Shown here piece after piece: positions 17,362 to 50,314 of a stretch of DNA of 64,000 bases. The DNA comes from Candidatus Babeliales bacterium. Its GTDB lineage: Bacteria > Babelota > Babeliae > Babelales > JANWKD01. Within the stretch, counting starts at the first letter, position 1. Each line of letters begins with the position of its first letter. The DNA is taken from NCBI GenBank assembly GCA_963722075.1, contig CAVRJM010000001.1:768001-832000 (forward strand). Direction: 5' to 3'. The position numbers and the translations under genes are program-made. Under the pieces are notes generated by a model. The model was given only the letters and a program-made list of their open reading frames with translations, searched no databases and had not been told where the DNA came from.

Positions 17362-17477
17362 ATCTGGCAGTACCTACTTTTCCAGTCCGTCTCCAGACAA
17401 GTATCATCGGCGTTGTAGACTTAACTTCCGTATTCGGGATGGGAACGGGTATTTCCCTACAACTATACCCACCAGAA
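17362..17477 (-). rRNA. rrf: 5S rRNA
   Basis: Reverse complement contains CCCGTTCCCATCCCGAATACGGAAGTTAAG and GCCGATGATACT; ends approximate. Confidence 0.93.
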
Positions 17478-17583
17478 ATTTTTTAGTTCTGATTTGAACA
17501 AACTTTTCAAATTTTTTCTTGTTTCTTGTGAGATATTTGTAACTTAAACTTACTTATGATTACATTACCATAGAAATTTGTAG

Positions 17584-20602
<3,019 letters not shown>

Positions 20603-20754
20603 AAATTTTTATGACTAATCTAATCAATAAGTAACTACAAAATAAATTTGTAGATAATTTAAGTTACAAATATTTCAAAGATCACAAGAAAATTTTTTAA
20701 CATCTTTTAATTTGAGAAAATTTAATTAAATATATTTGAGTTCGTTTTGCAATT

Positions 20755-20830
20755 TGGTGGAGATGAGCGGAATCGAACCGCTGACCTTCCGCGTGCAAAA
20801 CGGACGCTCTACCAGCTGAGCTACATCCCC
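20755..20830 (-). tRNA. tRNA-Ala(TGC)
   Basis: GGGGATGTAGCTCAGCTGGTAGAGCG..TTTGCAC..GGTTCGATTCC..CCACCA; in rRNA spacer. Confidence 0.96.
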
Positions 20831-20901
20831 AAGCATATTAAGCGATACAAGCACTCTTAAACCACTAAAAACAGTTCAATCATTTAAGTGCCCACAGTTT
20901 A

Positions 20902-20978
20902 TGGTGGGCCTAAGTCGACTTGAACGACTGACCTCCCCGTTATCAGCGGGGTGCTCTAACCACCTGAGCTATAGGCCC
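20902..20978 (-). tRNA. tRNA-Ile(GAT)
   Basis: GGGCCTATAGCTCAGGTGGTTAGAGC..CTGATAA..GTTCAAGTC..CCACCA; in rRNA spacer. Confidence 0.96.
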
Positions 20979-21108
20979 GCATTTCAAACTAAAGAGTAAA
21001 CTCATATTTAAATTAAAAATTATACGCTTATGAATCTTATAAAGGAATCTTTCTATCAATAACACCTTAAAACAAGAGCAAGAAACTCTTGCAGTATATT
21101 ACTCCCTC

Positions 21109-22652
<1,544 letters not shown>

Positions 22653-22920: not shown

Positions 22921-23499
22921 CTATGCTGATTTTGCATATTTAATAACAATGGCTACAAGCTCAGAAAGCGCTTTTTGGGGATCGTCATTTAGAATCGAAT
23001 AGTTAAAAATTGAGAGCTTTTTTTGCTTTTTTAATTCTTGTTGAGCAAGTAATAATCTTTTTTTAATTTCTTTATTATTTTCAGTTTTTCGTTGCAATAA
23101 CCGCTTTTTTAGCTGTGCCAATGTATCAGTATATATCCATATTAATACTGCCTGTTCAACAAGCTGTTTTATTGCCTGCGCTCCTTCAAGATCAGTTATT
23201 ATTATTAATGATTTACCTAAGGCAATATCAGTAATAATAGAATGAGGAGATCCATAGTAATTGCCGTACTGGTTACTCCATTCTAAAAAAAAGCCGTTTT
23301 TAGCACGTATTTCAAACTCTTCAACTGATAAAAAATGATAATCTATACCATTTTGCTCGGTCATACGAGGTGCTTTAGTAGTATAAGTAATTACCCGACT
23401 AATCGGATAGCTTATGCTCAACTCCTTAATTGCACGGGTCACTAAGGTCGTTTTGCCTGCTCCTGAGCATGCTGATACCACAAATAATGTTCCTGCCAT
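22921..23499 (-). CDS. gmk: Guanylate kinase
   Basis: SACSGAGKTT P-loop; TTKAPR..EQNGIDYHF; FLEW..YGNYYG. Confidence 0.92.
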   Translation of the reverse strand: MAGTLFVVSACSGAGKTTLVTRAIKELSISYPISRVITYTTKAPRMTEQNGIDYHFLSVEEFEIRAKNGFFLEWSNQYGNYYGSPHSIITDIALGKSLIIITDLEGAQAIKQLVEQAVLIWIYTDTLAQLKKRLLQRKTENNKEIKKRLLLAQQELKKQKKLSIFNYSILNDDPQKALSELVAIVIKYAKSA

Positions 23500-23671: not shown

Positions 23672-25657
23672 TTATTCATGCTCCTTTTCCTTCTCCTTTT
23701 CTTTTACTGGTGGTATTTCCTCTGGGATTTCTGCTATCGCTTGCCTACTTTTTTTTCTCTGTAGGCGCTCGCGCCCGCTTGCACCCAAAGACTTTTGCTC
23801 GCCAAGCGGTATTATACGCTTGCGCTTTGAAGGGCGCTTTGCCTGCAATTCTTCTTGAGGAATAGTAAACCCGATAACTCCATGCTCTTCGTTTCTTTCA
23901 AAAAAATAATTCAGTAATGCCAGCGGAATTTGCTGAAAATATTCATATTCCAGATCTGAACGTAAGATAGGTTTATTTTTTGCATCATCTTTAATAGCAC
24001 ACCATAATAACAATAGTGATGGTAAAGGTAATTGTTTAAATACGTTACGCGAATATAGCTCAAATTCAACAACGGTTAAGTAATACCCCTGTCCTTGCCG
24101 TAACGTTATATAAGAAATATGTTTATTGTCTGGAAGTATATATAATGCCGAAATACTAACATCATTAGTTTGAATTTCCTGCAACAACTTACCGCTTTTT
24201 AGATCCCACACCTGTATAGATCGAGGCTTTCCTATCAATTTACTTTTATATTCTTCTGTAATACCCAAATAAAATGATGAAATTAGATACTTATTATCTT
24301 TACTAAAGAAAATTGTTGGTTTGATTAAATAAGGATCCTCATTTGTATAAAAATGTTCAGCTAGAAATCGGTACATTTTTCTTCCGCTAGTAACATCAAA
24401 TATATAAATACTTTTATTAAAATCGACCACTGCAAGTAATGATCCTTCTGAAGAAAATTGCATTAATTCAATTGCTGCTTCAGTCTCATAACCAAACAGT
24501 TCATCATGGTTTTTAATTGTAATCCTATTATGAATATATCTAGCAACTACATCTTCATCTACGGGGCTAACTGCCCCTTTAAACCCCTTTAAAGGGATTG
24601 TTTTTTCAATTATTAGATTGCCTTTTAAAAGATTTTCTATAGTAATTAAGTGAAATCCATCTTTATCTGAAATATATATTTTTTGCCCATATGCAGTTGC
24701 ATAAATCCCATCCGGATTATTCCATCGCACGTGCTGTGGCGGTTCATCAAAATTATTGGTATTAAAAAGCACGATCTCATTAAATAAAAGTATTAGTAAT
24801 AACCGTTTTGATTCAATAAAAAGCGGTTTTTCCAAGCGATAATCAATAATAGACTTTACGTAAGATAATTGCTGCTGCTCAAATTTAAATAAATCAACAA
24901 CACGTCCATTCATTAATGTTAAAAAAACACTATTATCAATATACGCGCAACTTATTTTAGAAAGGTAATATGAACCTGACGCATTTTCTAACCGAAATGA
25001 CACCATGCGCCCTGGTCGCCGCCTTTGAAGATCATGCGTAATCTTAATAAACTGATCTTCATGATGCCATAATTCTTTAGTAACTAACTTACCTAATATA
25101 CTTTTTATATCTGCTGATTTTATTCTATCAATAAAAGCTAATAATTCTGCCTTTTTACCATATGCAACCATATCCTTAATATAATTAAATAAAAGCGGTG
25201 CAATGCTGGTAATAAGCTCCTTATTGCCAAAAAAGTCTGCAGTATTGGCCATATCAAGAATATCATCAATAGGCGCATTGCCTAAAAGCTGTACCACTGC
25301 ATTTTTTAAACTAGAGCCCTGTTTGATTAGTTTGAATATCACTTTCAAATATAAAAGGGACACTTGCGGTACATCATCAACAAATAAAGGGATAGTAGGA
25401 ATTTCTTCAATGCTATCCTCAATAATATCGCGCAAAACCGGGCTACTGTGCTCAATAAAGTTGCGTGGAACAACAATACTTAATAAAAAAACATCTTGAT
25501 CGCCATCTCTTTTAAACAGTTCTAATATTACTTCCTGTTCATTAGTGGGTAATTCTTGAAACTTTTCTTCTACGGGCGGTTCCATTGCTTGTAATACCGT
25601 AATAAAAAAGCACAATAACCACTTTTTATTTTTCATACTATTAATAAAAAACTCCAT
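23672..25657 (-). CDS. Exported Skp1/BTB-like + WD40 beta-propeller protein, paralog 1
   Basis: Signal + AME; SPVLRDIIED..IPL..ANTADFFG; FSSEGSLLAV and IQVWDLKSG; basic/acidic tail. Confidence 0.75.
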   Translation of the reverse strand: MEFFINSMKNKKWLLCFFITVLQAMEPPVEEKFQELPTNEQEVILELFKRDGDQDVFLLSIVVPRNFIEHSSPVLRDIIEDSIEEIPTIPLFVDDVPQVSLLYLKVIFKLIKQGSSLKNAVVQLLGNAPIDDILDMANTADFFGNKELITSIAPLLFNYIKDMVAYGKKAELLAFIDRIKSADIKSILGKLVTKELWHHEDQFIKITHDLQRRRPGRMVSFRLENASGSYYLSKISCAYIDNSVFLTLMNGRVVDLFKFEQQQLSYVKSIIDYRLEKPLFIESKRLLLILLFNEIVLFNTNNFDEPPQHVRWNNPDGIYATAYGQKIYISDKDGFHLITIENLLKGNLIIEKTIPLKGFKGAVSPVDEDVVARYIHNRITIKNHDELFGYETEAAIELMQFSSEGSLLAVVDFNKSIYIFDVTSGRKMYRFLAEHFYTNEDPYLIKPTIFFSKDNKYLISSFYLGITEEYKSKLIGKPRSIQVWDLKSGKLLQEIQTNDVSISALYILPDNKHISYITLRQGQGYYLTVVEFELYSRNVFKQLPLPSLLLLWCAIKDDAKNKPILRSDLEYEYFQQIPLALLNYFFERNEEHGVIGFTIPQEELQAKRPSKRKRIIPLGEQKSLGASGRERLQRKKSRQAIAEIPEEIPPVKEKEKEKEHE

Positions 25658-25725
25658 ACATTCCCTCCTATTCTCTTTCTTCTCGCTCTTTTTCTTTCTC
25701 TTTTGCTGGTGGCATCTCTTCTTCT
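25580..25725. repeat. Direct repeat copy 1, spanning the junction between WD40 paralogs
   Basis: Highly similar to 27585..27730, e.g. AAAAAGCACAATAACCACTTTTTATTTTT and CTTCTCGCTCTTTTTCTTTCTCTTTTG. Confidence 0.75.
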
Positions 25726-27674
25726 GGAACTTCTTCTTCCTCTTCTTCTCTTTCTCTTTCCTTTACCTTTTCTCTTCTTTTTGGTTTTTTTTCAGGTCTA
25801 CCAGAAGGTATTTCTCGTTCCAGTTGCATAGTCTTCCGTTTCCATTTCTGTATAAGAGCTTTTGCTTCTATCGGATTAGGTGATTTAAATCCTATAACTC
25901 CCCGCTCCTCATTTTTTTTAAAAAAATAATTCAATAATTCAGGGGGGAGACGTTCAAAATCTTCAAGATAATCAGGAAAAATATTCACCGGAAGCTTTTT
26001 TTCATCTGATTTAATGGCAAACCATAATAACATTAACGATATGAATGGTATCTTTTTAAATGTTTTACGTGAATATACCTCAAATGGGACTCCCTTAATA
26101 GCATAATAACCCTGTGGATGCCGTGTTACATATGCCATATAGTTACTATTAGGGGAAATAGATAAGGAGTAAATCCTTTTATCTTCAGTTTTAATTTCTT
26201 GGATAAGTGTCTCATTTTCCAAATCCCATATTTCTATAGAGCTATTTGGTATTTCGTCAAGTATATTTAAATTATTAACATCTAAAGAAAATGCTGAAAT
26301 TAGGTAGTTATTATCAGCGCTAAAACAAATGGATCTTAAATTAGTACTACTTATAAACCAAGGCAATCTTAAATTTAGCATGTCGTTTTTGCCAACAAAT
26401 TGTGCAACGATTTCTTCTCGTTTAATATCAAAAATATAAATATTATTATTTGAATTAACCACTGCTAATTTTGTCCCATCAGGAGAAAATCGTATTATTT
26501 CCACAGATCCTTCAATAGGATAACTAAATTGATGTCTATTATCAGGTGCAAAATTTTCAACAATAATATTTCCTTGTTTATAGTAGGCAATTACATCTTC
26601 ATCCACGGGACTTACATCCACTTTGGGCATTCTTAATGGTATTATTTTTTCTGCCGTATCGTTTCCTTCTATAAGATCTTTCACCCTCATTAAATGCAAG
26701 CCTTGGGAATCTGCTATATATATTTTTTTTCCAAATGCAGTTGAATAAAGAGCAGAAACACCACCCCATATGATCTTTTTTCTTAGTGAAAAATCGGTTC
26801 CATCAAAAACGCATATATATATAATAAAATTACTTCTTATGATGATTGCATTTTCTGATTCAATAAAAAGAACTTGCGAAACTTCCTGAGCAATTTTCAT
26901 AGCAAAATTTTGAACTAATTGCGGTCTGGCTTCTTTAAATTGATAAATCTTCATATCTTTAACTGATTTTATAGCTAAAAATAGCGAATTATTAAGATAT
27001 CCAAAATAAGAACTCATTACGTTAGGAATATTATAAGTTGCTATATTTGATACGCCCTGCAGCGCACTCCGCATAATACCAATAAAATGAGTTTCATGAG
27101 TCCACAATTCCTTAGTAACCAATTTGCTTAATTTTTTTTTTACTATTTCCCCTCTTATATTTCTAATGAGTTTGAAGAGCGTACCCCATTGATTGCGAGC
27201 CACCAAATCTTTAATACTGGCATATAATAATAACGTTATTTTATTAATAAGTGATCTATTGCCTAAATAATCTGCAGTGTTAGCCATATCCACGATAACG
27301 TCAGGAGCTGCTTTACCTAGTTTACTCATTACCGCATCTTCTAAAGAGATTCCTTGATTCATTAACGTAAAAACTTTATCAAGATATTGCATTGAAGCCA
27401 AAGAAACATTATTGGTGGATAATGGAATAGATGTTTCACCCAAATCTATATACCCTTTTAAAATATCTGATGAATGCTCAATAAAATCTAAGGGCACCGC
27501 AACGGTCAATATCAACGATTGATTACCGCTCGAATCATCATATAATTCCATTTTCATCTGGCTTGGTAATACCTTTTTAGGAGGCTCCATTGCCTGTAAT
27601 GTACATATGAAAAAGCACAATAACCACTTTTTATTTTTTATACTATTAATAAGAAGCTCCATATATTCCCTCAT
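25668..27674 (-). CDS. Exported Skp1/BTB-like + WD40 protein, paralog 2
   Basis: Signal + AME; ANTADYLG; FSPDGTKLAV and IEIWDL; KEKEKEREERE tail. Confidence 0.75.
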   Translation of the reverse strand: MREYMELLINSIKNKKWLLCFFICTLQAMEPPKKVLPSQMKMELYDDSSGNQSLILTVAVPLDFIEHSSDILKGYIDLGETSIPLSTNNVSLASMQYLDKVFTLMNQGISLEDAVMSKLGKAAPDVIVDMANTADYLGNRSLINKITLLLYASIKDLVARNQWGTLFKLIRNIRGEIVKKKLSKLVTKELWTHETHFIGIMRSALQGVSNIATYNIPNVMSSYFGYLNNSLFLAIKSVKDMKIYQFKEARPQLVQNFAMKIAQEVSQVLFIESENAIIIRSNFIIYICVFDGTDFSLRKKIIWGGVSALYSTAFGKKIYIADSQGLHLMRVKDLIEGNDTAEKIIPLRMPKVDVSPVDEDVIAYYKQGNIIVENFAPDNRHQFSYPIEGSVEIIRFSPDGTKLAVVNSNNNIYIFDIKREEIVAQFVGKNDMLNLRLPWFISSTNLRSICFSADNNYLISAFSLDVNNLNILDEIPNSSIEIWDLENETLIQEIKTEDKRIYSLSISPNSNYMAYVTRHPQGYYAIKGVPFEVYSRKTFKKIPFISLMLLWFAIKSDEKKLPVNIFPDYLEDFERLPPELLNYFFKKNEERGVIGFKSPNPIEAKALIQKWKRKTMQLEREIPSGRPEKKPKRREKVKEREREEEEEEVPEEEMPPAKEKEKEREERE

Positions 27675-27730
27675 TCCCTTTCTTCTCGCTCTTTTTCTTT
27701 CTCTTTTGTTTTTGGCATCTCTTCTTCTTC
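27585..27730. repeat. Direct repeat copy 2, spanning the junction between WD40 paralogs
   Basis: Highly similar to 25580..25725. Confidence 0.75.
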
Positions 27731-29722
27731 TTCCTCTTCTTCTTCTATTTTCTTTCGTTTTTTTACAGGTTCAGTAATAATTTTTGTTTTTTCTGGTTGC
27801 CATTCTCTTTTTTGACTGATACCAGTTCTTGAAGATTCCCCTTCTAGCGAGGCGAGCATTTTGAATCCTTCAACTCCTCGTTGCTTATTTCTATTATAAA
27901 AATATTTCTGCAATTCATCTGGCAAAAAATAAAAATAATGTAACTGTTCTTCACTCAAATATAGCGGCATATTTCTTGCATCTGTTTTAATGGCAAATAC
28001 CAATAACAATATTGATTTAAGATGCAATTTCCTAAATTTATTACGCCAATTTAGCCATGGTACAGATTGAATATGAAGTTCAAGAAATGAAGTGAGATTT
28101 TCTGCATTAGTTACATATGCGATTTTTTCATCACCAGGGAAAATAGTTAGACCAAAAATATTAGATCTCTTAGTATCAATTTTTTTTACAAAACTACCTT
28201 GTATTAAATCCCATATTTCAATAAAACGGCTTTGATCTTTTGGCGCTTTCTTCTGATTAGGATCTATCAACGCTGAAACAAGATAATTTTCCTTTTTTGT
28301 AAAAGAAACCGCTGCCTGCTTTGGAGCTATTTGAGTAATATTTTCTTCATATTCGCTTTCAAGAGCAAAAGTATCATATATCTTTCCTGTAAAATTATTG
28401 ATAGTAGTCATGTTTTTTCTATTATCAACTGATACCAATAATTCACCCTTAGGAGAAAACTGCAATTCGGTTACTTGGGAAGGCGATTCAATAGTAAACA
28501 TTTCTTCACGATTAATAAGATATATGATATTACTGTCTGTTTTACGAACATTGGCTATGTTATTTTCATACACCGGATTCACTGCAACTTTTGCATTTTT
28601 AGAAATTTCAATTCTACTTTCAATCATTCGACCTTCTAAAAAATCTTTAACTGCAATAAAATGAAGCCCTTTGCCATCCAATATTGCCACCTTTTCACCC
28701 TGCATCGCGGAGAAAACCCCTTCGATTTCAGAATACCATTGTATTTCATGTAGTAATTTCAATTTTTCTTGTGGTGGATAACTTTCTTTTTTTTTATAAG
28801 GAGCTAACATCATTTGTGAACGATCACCTTCAATTGCATACACTCTAATAATGTTTATATGAAAAACCATTATTAGATTTTCTTTCTCAATAAAAGCAAC
28901 ACCAATTTTACTTGATATCTTATCAGATACTGATGAAGGAATTTTCGTCGTAATCAAAGTAGGATTTTTATTTTCATTCACCTTCAATAATTCCAATAAG
29001 TCATCTTGATACACGCCAACCAACAGAGTATCTTTAGCATGTACAAAAGTTATTAATAGATTACTTGATGAAAATTGTGAAGGAATCGTTATTATAAACG
29101 GTTTTTCCCAACTAGAAAGGGGCAGAGCGCCTAAAATAATATTTAAATGAACTTCATCTTTCCAAATTTTTTTAATGACTAATTTAGCCACTTTTTTAGA
29201 AAACGATTCCACTTTTCTAATCATAGCACTTACTATTGGAAAGTAATTATTTTCAGCAGCTTTATGATAAAGAATATCAACAAATAAAGAAATAGCATCA
29301 TTGCTCAATTCTCTATTTTTTATATAATCACCGGCAATTGCCATATTTAAAACCGGGGTGGGATTATTATACGATTGTTCAGTATTTAATATTTCATGAA
29401 AAGCAGTAAAAAAAGGCTTCCCTTGGTCTTGCAAATTAAAAATTTCATTAAGAGACCCTAATGTTTCTGGCGTAATATATTTGGTATATAGGCGAGCAGT
29501 CTCCCCTTCAATTAATGATGGATTTTTAATAAAACCCAGTGGCGCTCTAATTGTTTTTTCAGGCTGTTTATCAGAAGCATTTTGAAATAGCTCCCAAGTC
29601 ATCTGCCTAGAAAATTCACTACCCATTTCATTTGATGAAGGTTTGGAACCTCCTTGATCTGGATGTTCCATTGCTGGTAATGAGTATATCAAAAACAATA
29701 TTATATATGGTATGTATTTCAT
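27671..29722 (-). CDS. Exported Skp1/BTB-like + WD40 protein, paralog 3
   Basis: Signal + AME; AIAGDYI; FSPKGELLV and IEIWDL; PVKKRKK and KEKEKEREERE tail. Confidence 0.72.
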   Translation of the reverse strand: MKYIPYIILFLIYSLPAMEHPDQGGSKPSSNEMGSEFSRQMTWELFQNASDKQPEKTIRAPLGFIKNPSLIEGETARLYTKYITPETLGSLNEIFNLQDQGKPFFTAFHEILNTEQSYNNPTPVLNMAIAGDYIKNRELSNDAISLFVDILYHKAAENNYFPIVSAMIRKVESFSKKVAKLVIKKIWKDEVHLNIILGALPLSSWEKPFIITIPSQFSSSNLLITFVHAKDTLLVGVYQDDLLELLKVNENKNPTLITTKIPSSVSDKISSKIGVAFIEKENLIMVFHINIIRVYAIEGDRSQMMLAPYKKKESYPPQEKLKLLHEIQWYSEIEGVFSAMQGEKVAILDGKGLHFIAVKDFLEGRMIESRIEISKNAKVAVNPVYENNIANVRKTDSNIIYLINREEMFTIESPSQVTELQFSPKGELLVSVDNRKNMTTINNFTGKIYDTFALESEYEENITQIAPKQAAVSFTKKENYLVSALIDPNQKKAPKDQSRFIEIWDLIQGSFVKKIDTKRSNIFGLTIFPGDEKIAYVTNAENLTSFLELHIQSVPWLNWRNKFRKLHLKSILLLVFAIKTDARNMPLYLSEEQLHYFYFLPDELQKYFYNRNKQRGVEGFKMLASLEGESSRTGISQKREWQPEKTKIITEPVKKRKKIEEEEEEEEEMPKTKEKEKEREERE

Positions 29723-29832
29723 TAAGTCCCTTCTGAATTATTCTCGTTTTTCTCCCCTTGAGCGCAAACTTAGTCAATCAGCTTAAAATATGCTATAATG
29801 AACATGATACTATTTATAAGAAAGATTACACA

Positions 29833-30924
29833 ATGCTTGTAGATGATTTAAAAGAAAAATTGAAATCTGCTGAACCCGATTTATCTATTATTCGAGAATA
29901 TTGGGCTAACGCTGGTTATGAACCATTATATGAGCAACTAACTCAAACAAGCAATCAAGAGAATTTTTGGCAACACCCTCAGCAAACAGAAATTTTAAAA
30001 CAATTACAGCAAATCAAAGTCCAACGAGATCAATACAAGTATGTCACCCAAACTCATACTGATATATACCAACTTATTGAGCTTTTTAGCCAAGACGAAC
30101 AAGAACTCCAAAAAATAAGCCCAGAAGTATATGATTTATGCCGTGCCATTAAGAAGTTTAAAATAGATTTATTAATGCAAGACCCTCAAGATAATTCAAA
30201 TTGCTTTTTAACCATAAATTCAGGCGCTGGTGGCACCGAATCACAAGATTGGGCAGAATTCTTATTACGGATGTATGTACGCTTTTGTGAACGTGAACGA
30301 CTCAATGCGCAAGTACTTGATTATCAAACTGGTGAAGGAGCCGGCATTAAATCTGCTACTATTTTTGTAAAAGGACGCAACGCTTACGGGCTTCTTAAAG
30401 GCGAACAAGGGGTTCATCGCTTAGTACGCATATCCCCTTTTGATGCTGCAAAACGGCGCCATACTTCTTTTGCTGCGGTTGCACTGACGCCCGAAGTTCC
30501 AGATGTTTCTATCACTATTGATCCTAATGATTTACGTATTGATACCTACCGGGCCGGCGGAGCAGGCGGACAGCATGTTAATAAAACGGAATCTGCAGTT
30601 CGAATTACTCACCTACCAAGCGGTATTGTAGTGCAATGCCAAAACGAACGCTCGCAACTGCAAAATAAAGAAACTTGCATGAAGATGCTTATGGCAAAAT
30701 TAGTACAAAAACAAAAAGAGGAAGAACTGGCTAAAGCAACTTCTGTTCAAAAGCAAAAAATTGAATGGGGTTCTCAAATTAGATCATATGTGCTACATCC
30801 TTATAAAATGGTAAAGGATCACCGCACTGATGTGGAATCTCCACAACCTGATTTAGTACTCGATGGCGAATTAATGCCTTTTATAGAGGCATACTTAATT
30901 CAACAAGGCGCCAAAGAACAGTAA
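29833..30924 (+). CDS. prfB: Peptide chain release factor 2 (no internal frameshift)
   Basis: GAGGTESQDW, RISPFD (SPF) and GAGGQHVN (GGQ); likely ATG at 29833. Confidence 0.95.
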   Translation: MLVDDLKEKLKSAEPDLSIIREYWANAGYEPLYEQLTQTSNQENFWQHPQQTEILKQLQQIKVQRDQYKYVTQTHTDIYQLIELFSQDEQELQKISPEVYDLCRAIKKFKIDLLMQDPQDNSNCFLTINSGAGGTESQDWAEFLLRMYVRFCERERLNAQVLDYQTGEGAGIKSATIFVKGRNAYGLLKGEQGVHRLVRISPFDAAKRRHTSFAAVALTPEVPDVSITIDPNDLRIDTYRAGGAGGQHVNKTESAVRITHLPSGIVVQCQNERSQLQNKETCMKMLMAKLVQKQKEEELAKATSVQKQKIEWGSQIRSYVLHPYKMVKDHRTDVESPQPDLVLDGELMPFIEAYLIQQGAKEQ

Positions 30925-30925
30925 T

Positions 30926-32974
30926 TCATTCTTTTTCTTCAGTCTCTTTTTCTTTTCTTTTTGATCTCTTTGGTTCAGCTTTTTTTGGTGGCGCTGGCTG
31001 TTTTCTTTTTGAAACTACAGGTGCTCCTACCAGCAAGCTTTTCACATTCCTTACACCACTTTTTTTCTTAAAATATCCTTGTAATTCTTTGGGTAATGCA
31101 AAGAAATAAGGCTCTAGGGTACGATCAAAACGGATTGGTTTATTTTGCGCATCAGTAGCTAAACAAAACCACAGCAACATAATTGAGCGTAATGTCAATT
31201 GACGCAAATTTTGTGCTAACCCAATGACTGAAAATTGCTGAACAATGAGTTGAGACCGCAAACCGTGCCCCGCATAGTGAGGAGGCAGTTGAATAATATA
31301 TGCAATATTTTTATTATCAGAAGAAACGCTTAATCCTTGAATACCATTAATATACGTTTTAGCAGTAGGATTAACATTTATGGTAGTAAGTAAATTTCCC
31401 GATGCTACCTCCCAAATTTTTATTTCTCGACTTTTCGCCACTTTTTTTGAATTAAGTATATCTCCATCAGAAAAACCTGATATAAGCCATTTATTATCAG
31501 AAGAAAAGCACAGTAATGCTTGAATAGAACTAAGAATACCCACACCTAATTCTGCTAATCGCGCACAGTTCTCTATATCCCCATTTAAGGTGCATAATTC
31601 TTTACCCAGTACCATATCCCATACTTTTATAATACCATTATTTGCTACTGATGCCAGTTTGGTCCCATCAGGTGAAAATTGTAAAGCGATAATTTTAGAA
31701 TTATAATTACCAATAGGAGTTATTGTGTGTTTACCAAGTTTAGTTCGTACATTTTTATCTATGTCGTACAACATAATATCACTGTTGTCTATACCATCTG
31801 TATATGCCACTACATTATTGGAAGGTGAAATAACAAAATGTTCTCCGCGCATGCTAAAATTGCGAATTACAAAAAAAGGTTTTTCTGCTTTTATATTAAT
31901 AAATACTAAATCAGGAGGCATGCTAATCAAAAGTAATTTCCCATCAGATGAGCATATAAATTGTTCAACAACCTTTTCTAAATGTAAGCCAGTTTTTAAA
32001 TCGACTCCTTTGGGTTCCGGCAACGTTAAGCCTACCGGAGTAGTTATTAATTCCTGTAAATTATAGAATTTGAAAGTATTATGGTACCAATCTCCACTAA
32101 CTTTATCTATTGCTGCCAATATAGAATTACCTAAAGCAATAAATCCAATATTAGGACTTTTTCTTTTAATAATCTCTATAATCTTATTTTCTTCTAAGGT
32201 AAAGAGTTGTAACGTTTTATCAAATTCAGTTACTATATGCGACAACGTGGCACATCGCCAATTTGTTGAAGCATTAAAAACTACATTTTTCAAATCTAAT
32301 ATTATTGTCGAAGTTTTCTTCACTTTCAATGAAGGATAAATAGCTCTTAAATAGGAAGATTCCAAACATAGGTAATCTACTAACAAATTAACTAGGGGAA
32401 CTACAATTCCGGGCTTATCTTGAACCTGAATGAATAGAGTATTCATTTTTTCCCACTCATTATTCTGCGCCAATTGTATAAGCCGTTCCTTAAAAGCAGT
32501 TATTAAGCTTTCTAGCCATTCCTTATTATCCAGGTAATCAAGTCCAAATAAAACATTAGCAATATGCTCTAATGGTGCTTGGTTAACATATGCCGATAGT
32601 AATAATGTAAAATCCGCTCCCAGTGCCATTTTTTGATATATTTGTTTTATAATACTGATTGTTTCTTTAGGAACATTATCGGTGTAAAGCGTAATAGTAG
32701 AAATACCTTCAGCGCCTTCTTCAAGCCCATAAAATGTTGAAAATCCTTGTAATATCGGAGACGCCTTTATAAAAGACCACGGTACTATCACTTCATCGAC
32801 CAATATTTCATTATCATCTTCACCAACTTCCTTTAATTGAAGTAACGCTTTTTTTGATTCTTCTTCATAAAGTGAAGTCGGTCCCGGTTCTATTGGTAAC
32901 TGTTCAGTTTCTTTTTGCTCCATTCCTCTCAATGTGGAAGTCAGCAGTAATAATATTACGATAAATCGCTTCAT
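30926..32974 (-). CDS. Exported Skp1/BTB-like + WD40 protein, paralog 4
   Basis: Signal + GME; SPILQG..GLDYLDN; FSPDGTKLASVANNGIIKVWD; basic tail. Confidence 0.78.
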   Translation of the reverse strand: MKRFIVILLLLTSTLRGMEQKETEQLPIEPGPTSLYEEESKKALLQLKEVGEDDNEILVDEVIVPWSFIKASPILQGFSTFYGLEEGAEGISTITLYTDNVPKETISIIKQIYQKMALGADFTLLLSAYVNQAPLEHIANVLFGLDYLDNKEWLESLITAFKERLIQLAQNNEWEKMNTLFIQVQDKPGIVVPLVNLLVDYLCLESSYLRAIYPSLKVKKTSTIILDLKNVVFNASTNWRCATLSHIVTEFDKTLQLFTLEENKIIEIIKRKSPNIGFIALGNSILAAIDKVSGDWYHNTFKFYNLQELITTPVGLTLPEPKGVDLKTGLHLEKVVEQFICSSDGKLLLISMPPDLVFINIKAEKPFFVIRNFSMRGEHFVISPSNNVVAYTDGIDNSDIMLYDIDKNVRTKLGKHTITPIGNYNSKIIALQFSPDGTKLASVANNGIIKVWDMVLGKELCTLNGDIENCARLAELGVGILSSIQALLCFSSDNKWLISGFSDGDILNSKKVAKSREIKIWEVASGNLLTTINVNPTAKTYINGIQGLSVSSDNKNIAYIIQLPPHYAGHGLRSQLIVQQFSVIGLAQNLRQLTLRSIMLLWFCLATDAQNKPIRFDRTLEPYFFALPKELQGYFKKKSGVRNVKSLLVGAPVVSKRKQPAPPKKAEPKRSKRKEKETEEKE

Positions 32975-43254: not shown

Positions 43255-44520
43255 TCATACCTTTACCACCAATAATGAATCCCAATTAGTAGTATAAGCG
43301 CGCGAACGGTACACCCCTTCTTTTGTACCACGTTCATAACAACCTTGCGATGCGGGGCGCACCATATGATTGCCCCACGTACTATTTAATTCATCCATTA
43401 CCTGCATCACCCGAGAAAATCGTTTATTCTTTTCATTATCAGCAAACAAATCTTGTTGTACCTCAGCGGTGTCAATTAAACCTGAGAGTATCACTCCTGC
43501 CCGTTTATAATTATAGCCCTGCACATAGATCGCTTTTAAAAGTTGATCCATATAGTGCAATAATAAGGGTGTAGAATCAGTTGCGTAGGGAAGCTTTATT
43601 TCTCGATAAGGAGCGTAATACGTTTGCTCATCAAAGCGACCAGTAGCAATAAAAATAGTTACATAATAAGCACATGATTGCTGTTCACGTAATTTTTGTG
43701 CTGCACGCCCTACAAAAAGCGCTAACAATTGCTGCAGCAATTGTTTACTAGTCACGGGCGTTTTAAAGCTTCTGGTGCAGGCTATTGATTGTTTAGGTGG
43801 CGCATATTCTTGTAAATCAATACAAGGAATACCGCGCAATTCCCATACCGTTTTCAAAAATAAGGTATTATTTATTAATGATTTAATACGTTTATCATCA
43901 GCACGCGTAAGATCCAACGCTGTTTTAAAAGCGTATCGTTCTAAAGTACGCGCATAGCGATATCCAATCCCCCACACATCGTTAATGGGAACTTTAAGCA
44001 AGTCATCTGGATTAGCTAATTGTGTACTATCAAAAATGCCATTGTACTGTTGGTTTTTTTTTGCTTGTTTATTAGCGAGCTTAGCACGCGTTTTAGTAGT
44101 AGCAATACCAATTGAAACGGGAATGCCTACCCATTGGTAAATACGTTCTTTCAACATAACGGCAACTTCGTATGCGTTGGCACACACATCAAATTCTATA
44201 AATGCTTCATCAATGGAATAGATCTCAGTACTATATCCCAACCCTTTTATGACACTCATAATGCGATCAGAAATATCAGCATATAAGGTAAAATTAGCAG
44301 AGCAAGCAACACCATTTACTCGTTTAATGAGCGGTTCATACTGAAAATAGGGTGCTCCCATAGGAATACCAACTGCTTTTGCTTCTTGAGAACGCGCTAC
44401 TACACAGCCATCGTTATTTGAAAGCACCACAACCGGGCGCTTTTTGAGCACGGGATTAAAAAGCCGCTCGCACGATACATAAAAATTATTACAGTCAACA
44501 AGCGCAATCAGTTTATTCAT
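43255..44520 (-). CDS. umuC: Y-family DNA polymerase V catalytic subunit
   Basis: LVDCNNFYVSCE, VVLSNNDGC, YSIDEAF, DVWGIG; C-terminal SRAYTTNW. Confidence 0.92.
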   Translation of the reverse strand: MNKLIALVDCNNFYVSCERLFNPVLKKRPVVVLSNNDGCVVARSQEAKAVGIPMGAPYFQYEPLIKRVNGVACSANFTLYADISDRIMSVIKGLGYSTEIYSIDEAFIEFDVCANAYEVAVMLKERIYQWVGIPVSIGIATTKTRAKLANKQAKKNQQYNGIFDSTQLANPDDLLKVPINDVWGIGYRYARTLERYAFKTALDLTRADDKRIKSLINNTLFLKTVWELRGIPCIDLQEYAPPKQSIACTRSFKTPVTSKQLLQQLLALFVGRAAQKLREQQSCAYYVTIFIATGRFDEQTYYAPYREIKLPYATDSTPLLLHYMDQLLKAIYVQGYNYKRAGVILSGLIDTAEVQQDLFADNEKNKRFSRVMQVMDELNSTWGNHMVRPASQGCYERGTKEGVYRSRAYTTNWDSLLVVKV

Positions 44521-44522
44521 AG

Positions 44523-45062
44523 TTAATTTAATAAGCATCCTTCACTAGGATTTTTATCATAATAAATTGCTTTTTCTGTACTCACCTTTTGCAACTCGTT
44601 CACTTGTTCCACCTTGTTCCTCACCATGGTTAATAAACCCAAACAATATATATGGTTAACCCAATTTTCTTCGGCCATTTTTTTAGCAGAAATATAACCG
44701 GCAAATTCATCACCAATGGTACACATTTTTTTCATAAATGCTTCAATATTATATACGCCTATTTTGCCCTCAGTATTAGGGGTTATTTGTATCCACGGAT
44801 ATTCTTTTTTGCCAGTAGAAATGCTAAGTACTGTTTCAAACTCTATTATTTGCCGATTAACAAATTTTTTTTCTTCTTCATTTAGTTGAGATGACTCAAC
44901 TATCTTTTTATTATTATCAATCACATCAGAAACAATTTGATCTATTTGCGGTACTAATTTCTCTATAAATGGATTAGAGGAAGTTATTCGTTTTTCTTCT
45001 TGCTGCATAGCAACACATGAAATATGAATACATATAAGTGCTATATAAATACGTAGCTTCAT
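44523..45062 (-). CDS. Exported hypothetical protein (signal + AMQ) ending in CaaX-like CLLN
   Basis: Paralog of 45094..45534 (EEKxFxN, STGKK, GxYxI). Confidence 0.7.
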   Translation of the reverse strand: MKLRIYIALICIHISCVAMQQEEKRITSSNPFIEKLVPQIDQIVSDVIDNNKKIVESSQLNEEEKKFVNRQIIEFETVLSISTGKKEYPWIQITPNTEGKIGVYNIEAFMKKMCTIGDEFAGYISAKKMAEENWVNHIYCLGLLTMVRNKVEQVNELQKVSTEKAIYYDKNPSEGCLLN

Positions 45063-45093
45063 CGGGGTCTATTCCTTTTTCTAACCGTTAAAA

Positions 45094-45534
45094 TTACTCT
45101 TCTGACGCTAATTCATCAATTCTCTTTTTTAAGTCAACTAATACATCCATTGCTTCTTTGTGCTTCTTTAAGTAGCACCTATCAATAGTCCCACATTTTA
45201 CAAAAAAAACTAGCTTCGCTTCTATCTCAGTTGCCAGCTTCACAATAGTATCAATATCGTATATTCCAGCATTTCCACGGTTTGATAGCTCATCACCATT
45301 AAGCTTATGTTTTTTGCCCGTCGACCGGTTTAATACAAATTTGAATTGAGCTGCTTTCCAGTTGAAAAAATCTTTTTCCTCTTTAAATAAATTAGGTAAC
45401 TTAGCGATCAATGCAGTGTTACTCGCCATTTTTTGTATAATATCATCTATCGAATGTTCTTTCTTGGCAGTCATCCCCATGCTTTCTACCCCTATTGCAA
45501 CTACCAAAAATAACAACACTCTATAGAATCTCAT
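45094..45534 (-). CDS. Exported hypothetical protein
   Basis: Signal peptide; paralog of 44523..45062. Confidence 0.7.
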   Translation of the reverse strand: MRFYRVLLFLVVAIGVESMGMTAKKEHSIDDIIQKMASNTALIAKLPNLFKEEKDFFNWKAAQFKFVLNRSTGKKHKLNGDELSNRGNAGIYDIDTIVKLATEIEAKLVFFVKCGTIDRCYLKKHKEAMDVLVDLKKRIDELASEE

Positions 45535-45554
45535 GCATTACCCTTTTAAAAATA

Positions 45555-46007
45555 TTAAATCACTTTATGAATAACATAAGAAACTACGCCCCAAATTTCA
45601 ATATCCATATCAGGAGTTACTAATAGTGGCTTATATTTTGTATTTGCAGGCACTAAATAAAGACAATCGCCTTGCTGCTCGATACGTTTAACCGTAAATT
45701 CCCCTTGTATTTGCACCACCACTACAGATCCATTAACCACCGGTAATGCTCGATCTACAATTAACATATCGCCTGATTGTATACCAGCTTCTACCATAGA
45801 ATTGCCTTCTACTCGTACAAAAAAAGTAGCTGCAGGATGCTGTATCAAATAGGTATTAAGATCGAGCTTTTGCTCTACGTAATCATCTGCCGGCGAAGGA
45901 AAGCCAGCGGCAATATAGGTTGATAATAAAGGAATAGGAATTTTTATTGACCGATCATCAACATAATATATTTCTACGTTATTTATTTTTTTTATTTTCT
46001 GTTCCAT
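45555..46007 (-). CDS. umuD: DNA polymerase V subunit UmuD (S24 peptidase)
   Basis: AAGFPSPADDY, RVEGNSM, FTVKR. Confidence 0.92.
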   Translation of the reverse strand: MEQKIKKINNVEIYYVDDRSIKIPIPLLSTYIAAGFPSPADDYVEQKLDLNTYLIQHPAATFFVRVEGNSMVEAGIQSGDMLIVDRALPVVNGSVVVVQIQGEFTVKRIEQQGDCLYLVPANTKYKPLLVTPDMDIEIWGVVSYVIHKVI

Positions 46008-46104: not shown

Positions 46105-46521
46105 ATGAATAGAATGAAAAAAATTTCTTTATTATTTCCAATCTTATGCAGTTTAAACTATGCTACTGCAATGGAAAAAAGCAAAAGAGAAAAACAGCAA
46201 TCAATACAATTGGATCAATCATGGAAAGGCCAGCAAGAGGCAGTAGTAAAATGTATGACTCAATCTGAAATTCGTAAACAAACTTACAAATTTTATGAGC
46301 ATGGAATATTAAAAGCAACTTTTAATGCCCAAAAAAAGTATGTAATAATTTATCCTACTGGCCAAAAAACAAAGAATAGTGATGAAAAAGAAAAATTAAA
46401 GATAAAATATAAATTCTTTCTCCAAATTATTACTGATATGGCATTAAGCAATGATGATAAAAAATGCCTTGAGGATCTTACTCAACTAAATGAAAAACGC
46501 CATTCTTGTTTAGTAAGTTGA
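46105..46521 (+). CDS. Exported WxGK-family protein (signal + AME) ending in CaaX CLVS
   Basis: AAGGAG RBS; WKGQQ..C..FNA shared with the genes at 56316..58230. Confidence 0.72.
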   Translation: MNRMKKISLLFPILCSLNYATAMEKSKREKQQSIQLDQSWKGQQEAVVKCMTQSEIRKQTYKFYEHGILKATFNAQKKYVIIYPTGQKTKNSDEKEKLKIKYKFFLQIITDMALSNDDKKCLEDLTQLNEKRHSCLVS

Positions 46522-46893: not shown

Positions 46894-49335
<2,442 letters not shown>

Positions 49336-49357: not shown

Positions 49358-50314
49358 TTATTTTGCTTCGTGATTATAATATAATTTGTGTCCACCTTGA
49401 GCACAGCATGGTGCCAATGCGTATCGATTATTAGCTAATTCTTTAAAGCGCGGCAACAGACCTTGTACATATGTATAAAAACTGCCCATCGACATTCCTT
49501 CTGCCTCACGTTCTGCTTCTAATTCAATCCTACTTATCAAACAAAGACCCGAAGAATGTCGTTCAATGCTGCAGATTGCATTGGTAGTCTCATGAAGCAT
49601 CTGCACTGCTTTTTTATTTTTGGCTAGAATAGCAATTTCCATAGTATTGAAAGTAGAATCAGCAGGAATATTAGGGCAACATGCTCTATCACGCTGGATC
49701 CCTACTTTATAGCATTCCATCAATACAAACATTAGCTCAGTTGCCCCACTTGGCTTAGTGATTTGAGCAAGAATATGCAATAACGTTTCCCCTTTATTGC
49801 CTTGTTTATTTACGTCACTGATAAAGCCATGTTCAATAACATATTTTAATTTATGAAAATTACGTAAAGCGCATTTATTATTTTCACGAACGGTTTTTTG
49901 TATCGTTTGTATTCGTTCTCGATTAGAATCATTTTCCAGTTTATTGTGCTCAATATCTTCTAGTAAACCTTGGTCATGCTCATTTATAGCTGATTGCCGC
50001 GCGAAGATATGGGTGAGCGTATCTTTATCAGCATAGCAGTTACTTACCACTTCTTGTGCAACTGCTAAAGGAAGTTCGCTTAGAAAAGTAACTGGAATTC
50101 TATCTTCAAGTAACCAAAAACGTATGGTACCTACATTACCCGGCAGTCCTATTGTGCCATTTTCTATTGCAGCGCGAAGCGCTTTTAATTTGGCCTGCTC
50201 AGAAACTTCATGCATACCATATTCATCTACGGTATATTTTGCAGTAAAATCTGATTCCATAGTATAGAGAATACTGCTACTAAGAAATAAGATGCATAAT
50301 GAAAACAAATACAT
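49358..50314 (-). CDS. Exported protein with degenerate ankyrin repeat(s) (signal + TME)
   Basis: DVNKQGNKGETLLHILA. Confidence 0.65.
   Translation of the reverse strand: MYLFSLCILFLSSSILYTMESDFTAKYTVDEYGMHEVSEQAKLKALRAAIENGTIGLPGNVGTIRFWLLEDRIPVTFLSELPLAVAQEVVSNCYADKDTLTHIFARQSAINEHDQGLLEDIEHNKLENDSNRERIQTIQKTVRENNKCALRNFHKLKYVIEHGFISDVNKQGNKGETLLHILAQITKPSGATELMFVLMECYKVGIQRDRACCPNIPADSTFNTMEIAILAKNKKAVQMLHETTNAICSIERHSSGLCLISRIELEAEREAEGMSMGSFYTYVQGLLPRFKELANNRYALAPCCAQGGHKLYYNHEAK

Follow-up and report, generated by a model that had tools for sequence, protein, structure and literature searches.

The window analysed here is the 64,000-nucleotide stretch 768001-832000 of contig C1 in the genome of a Candidatus Babeliales bacterium (G000; 1.47 Mb, 34.7% guanine plus cytosine (GC), 99% complete), and our subject is a cluster of four intact minus-strand open reading frames (ORFs) of 661-683 amino acids (aa) around prfB, which we call win1 to win4. 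A first-pass annotation made from the sequence alone had singled them out as candidate one-piece cullin-ligase adaptors; the set of four stood, though prfB, which lies inside their span on the plus strand between win3 and win4, had gone unmentioned. The four are paralogous to one another (24-41% identity, blastp E from 1e-16 to 1e-125) and have a common layout of a signal with an xME motif, a Skp1/BTB-fold core, a helical linker, a seven-bladed WD40 propeller, a helical cap and a K/R/E-rich tail. They were compared across 261 genomes, G000 and 260 others of its phylum (Babelota/Dependentiae), all in the same order, Babeliales, whose described isolates are, according to passages of three papers (PMC6561590, PMC4378268, PMC4776705), intracellular protist parasites with many signal-peptide proteins.

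Direct searches with the N-termini gave little. A Pfam scan returned no Skp1/BTB match for win1-win4 (Skp1_POZ, PF03931, cut-off reached by 0/4), their own profile retrieved nothing real from PDB sequences, and a word-based homologue search returned only the proteins themselves and generic WD40 proteins with the four-row alignment and a single match with the Skp1-core region. The PF03931 cut-off was passed by four other genes of G000, and it is through such relatives that the core can be traced. A profile of nine cores from a second G000 cluster matched win2 (E 8.5e-8) and win1 (5e-4) and not win3 or win4, and one of 28 cores from other genomes, run against 1794 ORFs, matched win1 (1.3e-6), win2 (4e-3) and win4 (6e-3) and left win3 unmatched. 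On the N-terminal pieces the 28-core profile gave 30.1, 18.5, 9.2 and 17.3 bits for win1 to win4, values reached by 0/300 shuffles of each, that of win3 being marginal (best shuffle 7.9 bits), and among 79 other signal proteins it exceeded 8 bits only in three known core carriers. When the two orthologues from G108, a genome of the same genus, were added, the resulting six-row profile met a profile of 19 Skp1-like domains at 96.2% (E 2.2e-9) in profile-profile comparison; searched alone, it matched 12/261 genomes and reached loci positive for Pfam Skp1_POZ (E 1e-8 and 4e-8). The 19-row family profile found solved structures of Skp1 at E 6e-29 to 1e-13 and of ElonginC at 1e-5 to 2e-12, with no other BTB at E 0.01; its best Skp1 match (E 6e-29) was 6v88, which we take to be Dictyostelium Skp1. 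A full profile of 30 eukaryote-type Skp1 sequences gave the G108 orthologues 10 and 21 bits. As judged from these intermediate profiles, through which alone it is linked, the N-terminal core is Skp1-derived and very diverged in this branch. Not all of the Skp1 motifs first described as shared are general: S-x-[VI]-L occurs in three of the four (not win3), IPL in two and A-x-[TA]-[AG]-D-[YF]-[LFI] in three (not win4). The remark that the third paralog is the weakest was right, win3 having the lowest score.

The structural models place the same region in the BTB/POZ fold. The win1 model, built from the four-row alignment (mean predicted local distance difference test score (pLDDT) 71), contains a three-strand multi-helix domain at residues 42-165, helices at 169-212, the propeller at 218-531 and the cap at 537-591, and the win3 core, modelled from six close rows only (win1-win4 and the G108 pair), reached pLDDT 86. 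The core models consist of a three-strand sheet and a five-helix core in BTB order. In Foldseek, ranks 1-9 for the win3 domain were Skp1-length chains of Skp1 complexes at non-significant E values of 0.25-0.51, and nothing in PDB or BFVD reached E 0.001. With VIA, the same domain aligned with KLHL22 BTB/3-box (Z 7.7, root-mean-square deviation (rmsd) 3.5, 118 aligned) and with Skp1 of 1ldk (Z 6.9, 3.7, 109), and 21 of the top 30 rows were BTB, Skp1 or ElonginC. The helices after the core superpose on KLHL22 49-178 and SPOP 199-338 (rmsd 3.5-4.0), with no sequence support for a 3-box. In the ESM Atlas, win2 36-200 met BTB/Skp1 clusters at 0.84-0.86, below 0.9 and useful as a lead only. The models together with the profile links give the N-terminal region the Skp1/POZ identity, and the POZ fold, on which the first-pass annotation had staked its proposal.

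The rest of the chain was also as that annotation had described it. WD40/beta-propeller families of Pfam matched all four proteins, mostly under the curated cut-offs and most weakly in win3, and the win1 propeller model has 28 strands forming seven four-stranded blades, which extend to win2-win4 by alignment; against WD40 structures it gave Z 25.1 with VIA (rmsd 3.1, 286 aligned). Whole-protein fold searches were dominated by the propeller and did not touch the linker and cap. Among win1-win4 the propeller is overall no more diverged than the Skp1 core, but identity is 0.16 in its top-face loops and 0.30 in the bottom loops and strands, and the long insertions sit in the top face. Such variable loops fit different targets per copy, which the first-pass annotation had proposed from the divergent propellers, yet they are common among WD40 proteins. 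The helical cap, found in 4/4, is the most conserved region (mean identity 0.40). Its six-row profile had no other match in G000 proteins or 29 relatives, although similar caps are discernible by eye in other proteins. F-box families (PF00646/PF12937) gave no match at E 10 in two window linkers, two caps and seven relatives' linkers, and, Pfam giving no match, we did not take either linker or cap for an F-box or a SOCS box.

Signal and tail were also located as described. A heuristic found a hydrophobic N-terminus followed by AME or GME in 4/4, and the four basic clusters KRPSKRKR, KKPKRR, PVKKRKK and KRSKRK all lie in the tails; both G108 orthologues likewise end in basic tails. A loose rule for nuclear localisation signals (NLS) was satisfied by 4/4 of win1-win4, 5/79 other signal + xME proteins, 0/10 other G000 Skp1-like proteins and 1/29 relatives. 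The basic tails are, as far as these counts go, specific to this branch, and their NLS-like motifs follow from composition. G000 has two secretins and two T2SSE-type ATPases, and no FHIPEP (type III export gate) was found in it. At G000:C1:1152861-1160265 the two secretin genes adjoin PilM/GspL-like and other membrane-protein genes, a candidate export system for many signal + xME proteins.

The genes belong to a far larger family, which the first-pass annotation had missed: win1-win4 are only one diverged, genus-level branch. Skp1_POZ matched 46/261 genomes and 0/14 controls, and the family's own profile matched 74/261 genomes, 51/189 of the good-quality ones, at about 298 places. From the 30 loci listed we took 29 ORFs outside G000, a signal-like start being present in 27/29, and scanned 28 for domains (one ORF of 154 aa was left out). 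The rest of these 28 proteins held WD40 in 10, leucine-rich repeats (LRR) in four, ankyrin in two and an M48 peptidase in one, with nothing more at E 1e-8 in 11; in L030:334-1692 of genome G184 the Skp1-like core is joined to the M48 peptidase-like domain. In all 29 relatives the Skp1 likeness stops by position 127 of the 154-position full Skp1 profile. Skp1's last helices bind the F-box, as stated in a passage of PMC1257465, and PF01466 was found neither in G000 nor in any of the 261 genomes in a scan that had no positive control. The F-box-binding helices are, by these profiles, missing from the family, and in win1-win4 the linker and propeller stand in their place. In 7/29 relatives the core is followed by an LPx[ED] motif resembling the first helix of an F-box, with no Pfam support. 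Among the best 150 of 8850 matches in a search of 1.84 billion representatives, rough rules separated Skp1-like proteins that have the C-terminal helices from long fusions that bear a signal and lack those helices, the latter making up 32/62 of the long matches. The Skp1-core query found nothing in viral contigs or plasmids.

G000 itself has 13 core carriers and one doubtful match. Its second cluster (L001, C1:973370-982682) contains four WD40 genes with signal peptides; each encodes two or three Skp1-like cores in tandem, of which one passes the Skp1_POZ cut-off. Since the last core retains IxLPN and AADYL, these proteins are better Cul1-binding candidates than win1-win4. In two of them the signal is followed by a basic stretch (MKRKAS). 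Further carriers on C1, mostly with propellers, lie at 123574, 550130, 1354254, 1356721 and 1358880, and weaker ones at 260087 and 866848 look like a core with LRR. A PSLxxL[CA] motif, which we liken to the consensus of the ElonginC-binding BC-box, occurs in the proteins at G000:C1:289431, 293189, 1303545 and 201542, three times ahead of a propeller (one piece tested, no Pfam support), and an F-box-like LxxLPxEL start occurs in the signal-peptide proteins at G000:C1:86231, 536477 and 681263. To go by these motifs, G000 may combine mimics of F-box, BC-box and Skp1.

The coordinates of the cluster and its flanks are collected in Table 1. The win2 start may be Met5, where the ribosome-binding-like sequence is that of win1. 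In G108, whose prfB is 79% identical, two homologues of the same build lie directly after prfB, and G109 and G110 have none beside it (the G110 contig stops 3 kb past prfB). A tree of 13 rows, none of them eukaryotic Skp1, so that no donor is claimed, grouped win1-win4 in one clade (100/99) with the G108 pair as its sister (98/98); the branching order is win4, win3, win1+win2. From this topology the copies are read as separate tandem expansions, in G000 and G108, from one gene beside prfB, and nucleotide repeats spaced about 2 kb apart are consistent with tandem expansion. A recent transfer was rejected, the GC content at third codon positions of win1-win4 (0.21-0.26) being like that of the neighbours gmk (0.25) and prfB (0.27). 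The gmk-prfB interval, occupied by win1-win3 in G000, is a variable insertion site; in G108 (L053:4576-9464) it holds genes that, by their motifs, presumably encode ADP-ribosylglycohydrolase-like, S9 peptidase-like and transposase proteins.

Table 1. Features of the win1-win4 cluster and its flanking genes, with positions in the window.
Feature	Position	Strand	Basis
Guanylate kinase-like gene (gmk); cluster flank, also upstream of prfB in G108 and G110	22921..23499	-	name presumed from motifs
win1 gene (661 aa), coding for signal + AME, Skp1-like core, linker, WD40 propeller, cap and basic tail	23672..25657	-	
win1 disordered K/R/E-rich tail with KRPSKRKR (23816-23839)	23675..23884	-	pLDDT <50
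win1 helical cap, residues 536-591	23885..24052	-	model, alignment
win1 seven-bladed WD40 propeller, residues 216-535	24053..25012	-	Pfam, model, fold search
win1 helical linker, residues 166-215, replacing Skp1 helices 7-8 and F-box/3-box	25013..25162	-	model
win1 Skp1/BTB-like core, ~residues 40-165: three strands + helices in Skp1 order; ANTADFFG	25163..25540	-	model; profile E 1.3e-6; 30.1 bits
win2 gene, 668 aa; core ~27195-27563, cap 25911-26063, tail with KKPKRR	25668..27674	-	core profile E 8.5e-8
win3 gene (683 aa): core ~29255-29608, the most diverged; cap 27887-28039; PVKKRKK in the tail	27671..29722	-	profile, model
prfB, housekeeping gene for release factor 2; marker of the syntenic G108 site	29758..30924	+	name presumed from the motifs GGQ and SPF
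win4 gene (682 aa): core ~32465-32848; cap 31058-31210; KRSKRK in the tail; first copy to branch off, placed as the G108 pair is	30926..32974	-	

Elsewhere in the window, a complete ribosomal RNA operon with two tRNAs lies at 17362-22652 (minus strand), separated from gmk by 270 bases and from the cluster by about 1 kb. A presumably leucyl-tRNA synthetase-like sequence (label from motifs) is broken across several ORFs at 47058-49328 (minus strand), and the ORFs beside it at 46105-46521 and 49358-50314 repeat on contig C3, which suggests a duplication or a misassembly. At 43255-46007 (minus strand) lie genes that we take, again from motifs, to be umuC-like and umuD-like, with two small ORFs in between.

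As no cullin was found in the 261 genomes, in a scan that had no positive control, any cullin partner would be the host's. In Skp1 the PxPN motif of strand B3 contacts Cul1, according to a passage of PMC1257465; it is present in 20/30 eukaryote-type Skp1s, and IPLP[NT] occurs in 8/28 relatives (16/28 loosely). The complex modelling with Cul1 that had been suggested along with the adaptor proposal gave a weak pass for win2, limited to one copy and a stand-in cullin: the predicted win2 core-CUL1 complex scored 0.57 against 0.01 for the best control, its runs sharing at least 88% of contacts and the partner having pLDDT of at least 78, which is weak support. The mark is reached by 116/157 solved pairs and 2/215 mismatched pairs, and at scores up to 0.60 by only 18 of the 157 solved pairs together with both passing mismatches. 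Because Skp1-Cul1 is already a solved pair, the pass may show likeness only. The stand-in "cullin 1" was found using a giant-virus cullin as bait; five giant-virus metagenome contigs (L060-L064) carry full-length cullins, two of them near plant/protist-type CUL1.

With the architecture, the fold, the Skp1 descent through intermediates, the truncation before the F-box-binding helices and the spread of the family demonstrated as above, we favour, at a probability of about 55%, the reading that win1-win4 are one-chain cullin adaptors exported into a protist host, most likely for Cul1 by descent, whose propeller holds a host protein for ubiquitination; on slightly better than even grounds they may be likened to a Cul1 counterpart of BTB-Kelch proteins. 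Such a protein would be exported by Sec, leave the cell through a secretin/type II-like system or vesicles and enter the cytosol of the protist host. There its core would dock on the host cullin, the helices that follow acting like a 3-box, while linker and cap would fix the position of the propeller; each copy would select a different substrate through its top-face loops, and the basic tail would send this branch to the host nucleus. Since one chain takes the place of Skp1 and F-box protein alike, it would, in addition, rival the host Skp1-cullin-F-box (SCF) complexes for cullin.

Several results weigh against this adaptor reading, and some of them would suit a Skp1-derived domain that in this branch no longer binds cullin and serves as a spacer, an oligomerisation module or a module for another partner, the propeller and basic tail acting on a nuclear target without ubiquitination. 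PxPN is absent from win1-win4 (0/4; in win1, IPLFVDDV occupies its position) and from the G108 orthologues (0/2), a loss in 6/6; the one-piece adaptor claim has the POZ fold, the Skp1 descent and the missing F-box-binding helices in its favour and the PxPN count against it. Against the full eukaryote-type Skp1 profile win1-win4 score no more than 5 bits, win3 and win4 within the shuffle range, and the core, with a mean identity of 0.28 against 0.30 for blades 4-7, is unlike a constrained docking module in not being preferentially conserved. The long branches of the tree and the many non-cullin uses of BTB folds mentioned in part of PMC1257465 point the same way. All VIA Z values for the win3 domain are below 8, the range where the tool warns of common arrangements, so that the case for the fold depends in large part on the profile links. 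The complex prediction, moreover, used the win2 core only, with a stand-in protist-type CUL1 (residues 1-270) and an alignment that included PxPN-bearing relatives. On the other side, all six (win1-win4 and the G108 pair) retain the fold and the helix-5 D-[YF]-[LFI] / N-F-I motif, and there is the weak CUL1 pass, 0.57 against 0.01, even with its stand-in cullin and possible mere likeness; we consider a core turned to other uses improbable, though the foremost of the alternatives. The proteins might instead bind the host cullin as decoys, blocking SCF assembly and stabilising host proteins without new substrates being destroyed. This shares the binding evidence of the adaptor reading, a core without F-box-binding helices would be expected to be dominant-negative, and the two or three tandem cores of some relatives would suit avid binding. 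Diversified propellers, LRRs or ankyrins would be superfluous in a decoy, however, whereas the family repeatedly couples its core to repeats typical of substrate receptors and varies most in the top-face loops, and we hold this to be rather unlikely.

Delivery to the host is likewise a prediction. Signal + xME occurs on about 177 G000 ORFs by a loose rule and so does not single out win1-win4, export signs are limited to the signal-like start with no type III export gate found in G000, and the route of Sec substrates into the host cytosol is hypothetical. After Sec export the proteins could remain in the periplasm, at the cell surface or within the lumen of the vacuole. Skp1 and K/R-rich NLS-like tails, on the other hand, would serve no purpose outside the cytosol or nucleus of a eukaryote. 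The phylum's ankyrin effectors would share the signal route, itself a prediction in the parts of PMC6561590 and PMC4378268 that treat it, and a bacterial or vacuolar destination seems to us very unlikely. Of composition shuffles, 29-61% attain the tail motifs under the loose rule and 7-22% under the strict one, and since same-letter shuffles so often give the motif, nuclear import through the predicted NLS-like tails is not more than plausible.

Two known systems bracket the proposed design. Skp1 (PF03931 + PF01466) works in SCF ligases with F-box/WD40 receptors such as Cdc4/Fbw7 and beta-TrCP, and win1-win4 resemble this pair in a core that descends from Skp1 and a seven-bladed WD40 propeller behind a helical linker; they differ in being one chain instead of two, bacterial and signal-bearing, and in having no F-box-binding helices, no Pfam F-box and no PxPN. 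BTB-BACK-Kelch and BTB-3-box adaptors of Cul3 (KLHL11, KLHL22, KEAP1, SPOP, vaccinia A55) likewise join a BTB fold, a helical extension and a beta-propeller in a single chain, and the best VIA rows (BTB/3-box) cover the core and following helices of the win3 domain, whereas the family's sequence leads to Skp1 and away from Cul3-type BTB, the models lack the N-terminal dimerisation extension and the propeller is WD40, not Kelch. Single-chain BTB cullin adaptors as such are a precedent, as described in part of PMC3597819. The expanded, tandemly duplicated PEX1 BTB-LRR families of Protochlamydia and F-box families of Neochlamydia offer a parallel of cullin-adaptor-like genes in protist-dwelling bacteria; according to passages of Domman 2014 (PMC4209131), BTB among bacteria is apparently confined to Chlamydiae, and those proteins are BTB (Cul3-type) or F-box and type III-linked, while here a Skp1-derived core with a Sec-type signal is found in another phylum. 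Giant viruses (Pithovirus, Orpheovirus, Bodo saltans virus) have Skp1 and SKP1/BTB/POZ-domain proteins too, some Orpheovirus entries (272-287 aa) being longer than Skp1, but these are viral, and the matches, weak at E 0.1 or worse, were compared by name and length only. Mimivirus has BTB-WD-repeat proteins. The bacterial F-box effectors Legionella AnkB, Agrobacterium VirF and Ralstonia GALA, predicted to hijack host SCF, bind host Skp1, which the Skp1-core family would replace.

Full-text searches brought up no publication on fusions of a Skp1 core, whether in Babelota or in any other bacteria, although supplements, subscription papers and database annotations may already name such domains; the main text of Pagnier 2015 (PMC4378268) mentions deubiquitinases, F-box and RING but not BTB, and has Skp1 only within a reference, and that of Yeoh 2016 (PMC4776705) names neither BTB nor Skp1. 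Described here, as read from the sequences, are signal-peptide Skp1-core fusions with WD40, LRR or ankyrin ends, order-wide in Babeliales. A broader and more tentative proposal, which we ourselves hold somewhat doubtful, is that Babeliales took a eukaryotic Skp1 and removed its F-box-binding helices, leaving a portable plug that would let Cul1 use one-chain adaptors as Cul3 does with BTB; the roughly 300 matches in 74/261 genomes would then be a Skp1-replacement toolkit, and win1-win4 a nuclear-targeted set docking on cullin without PxPN.

Known bacterial SCF hijackers bear an F-box and use host Skp1. If the adaptor reading is true, the secreted Skp1-core fusion would be a natural single-chain Cul1 adaptor that skips the loan of host Skp1 on which F-box effectors depend, and the family would provide a large natural variant set in which to ask what surface of the Skp1/BTB fold decides the choice of cullin. 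The decay of the nucleus reported for Chromulinavorax in part of PMC6561590 is possibly connected, a link that is speculation. Such adaptors would give a concrete mechanism for the remodelling of protist hosts by a widespread, barely cultured phylum rich in unexplained secreted proteins.

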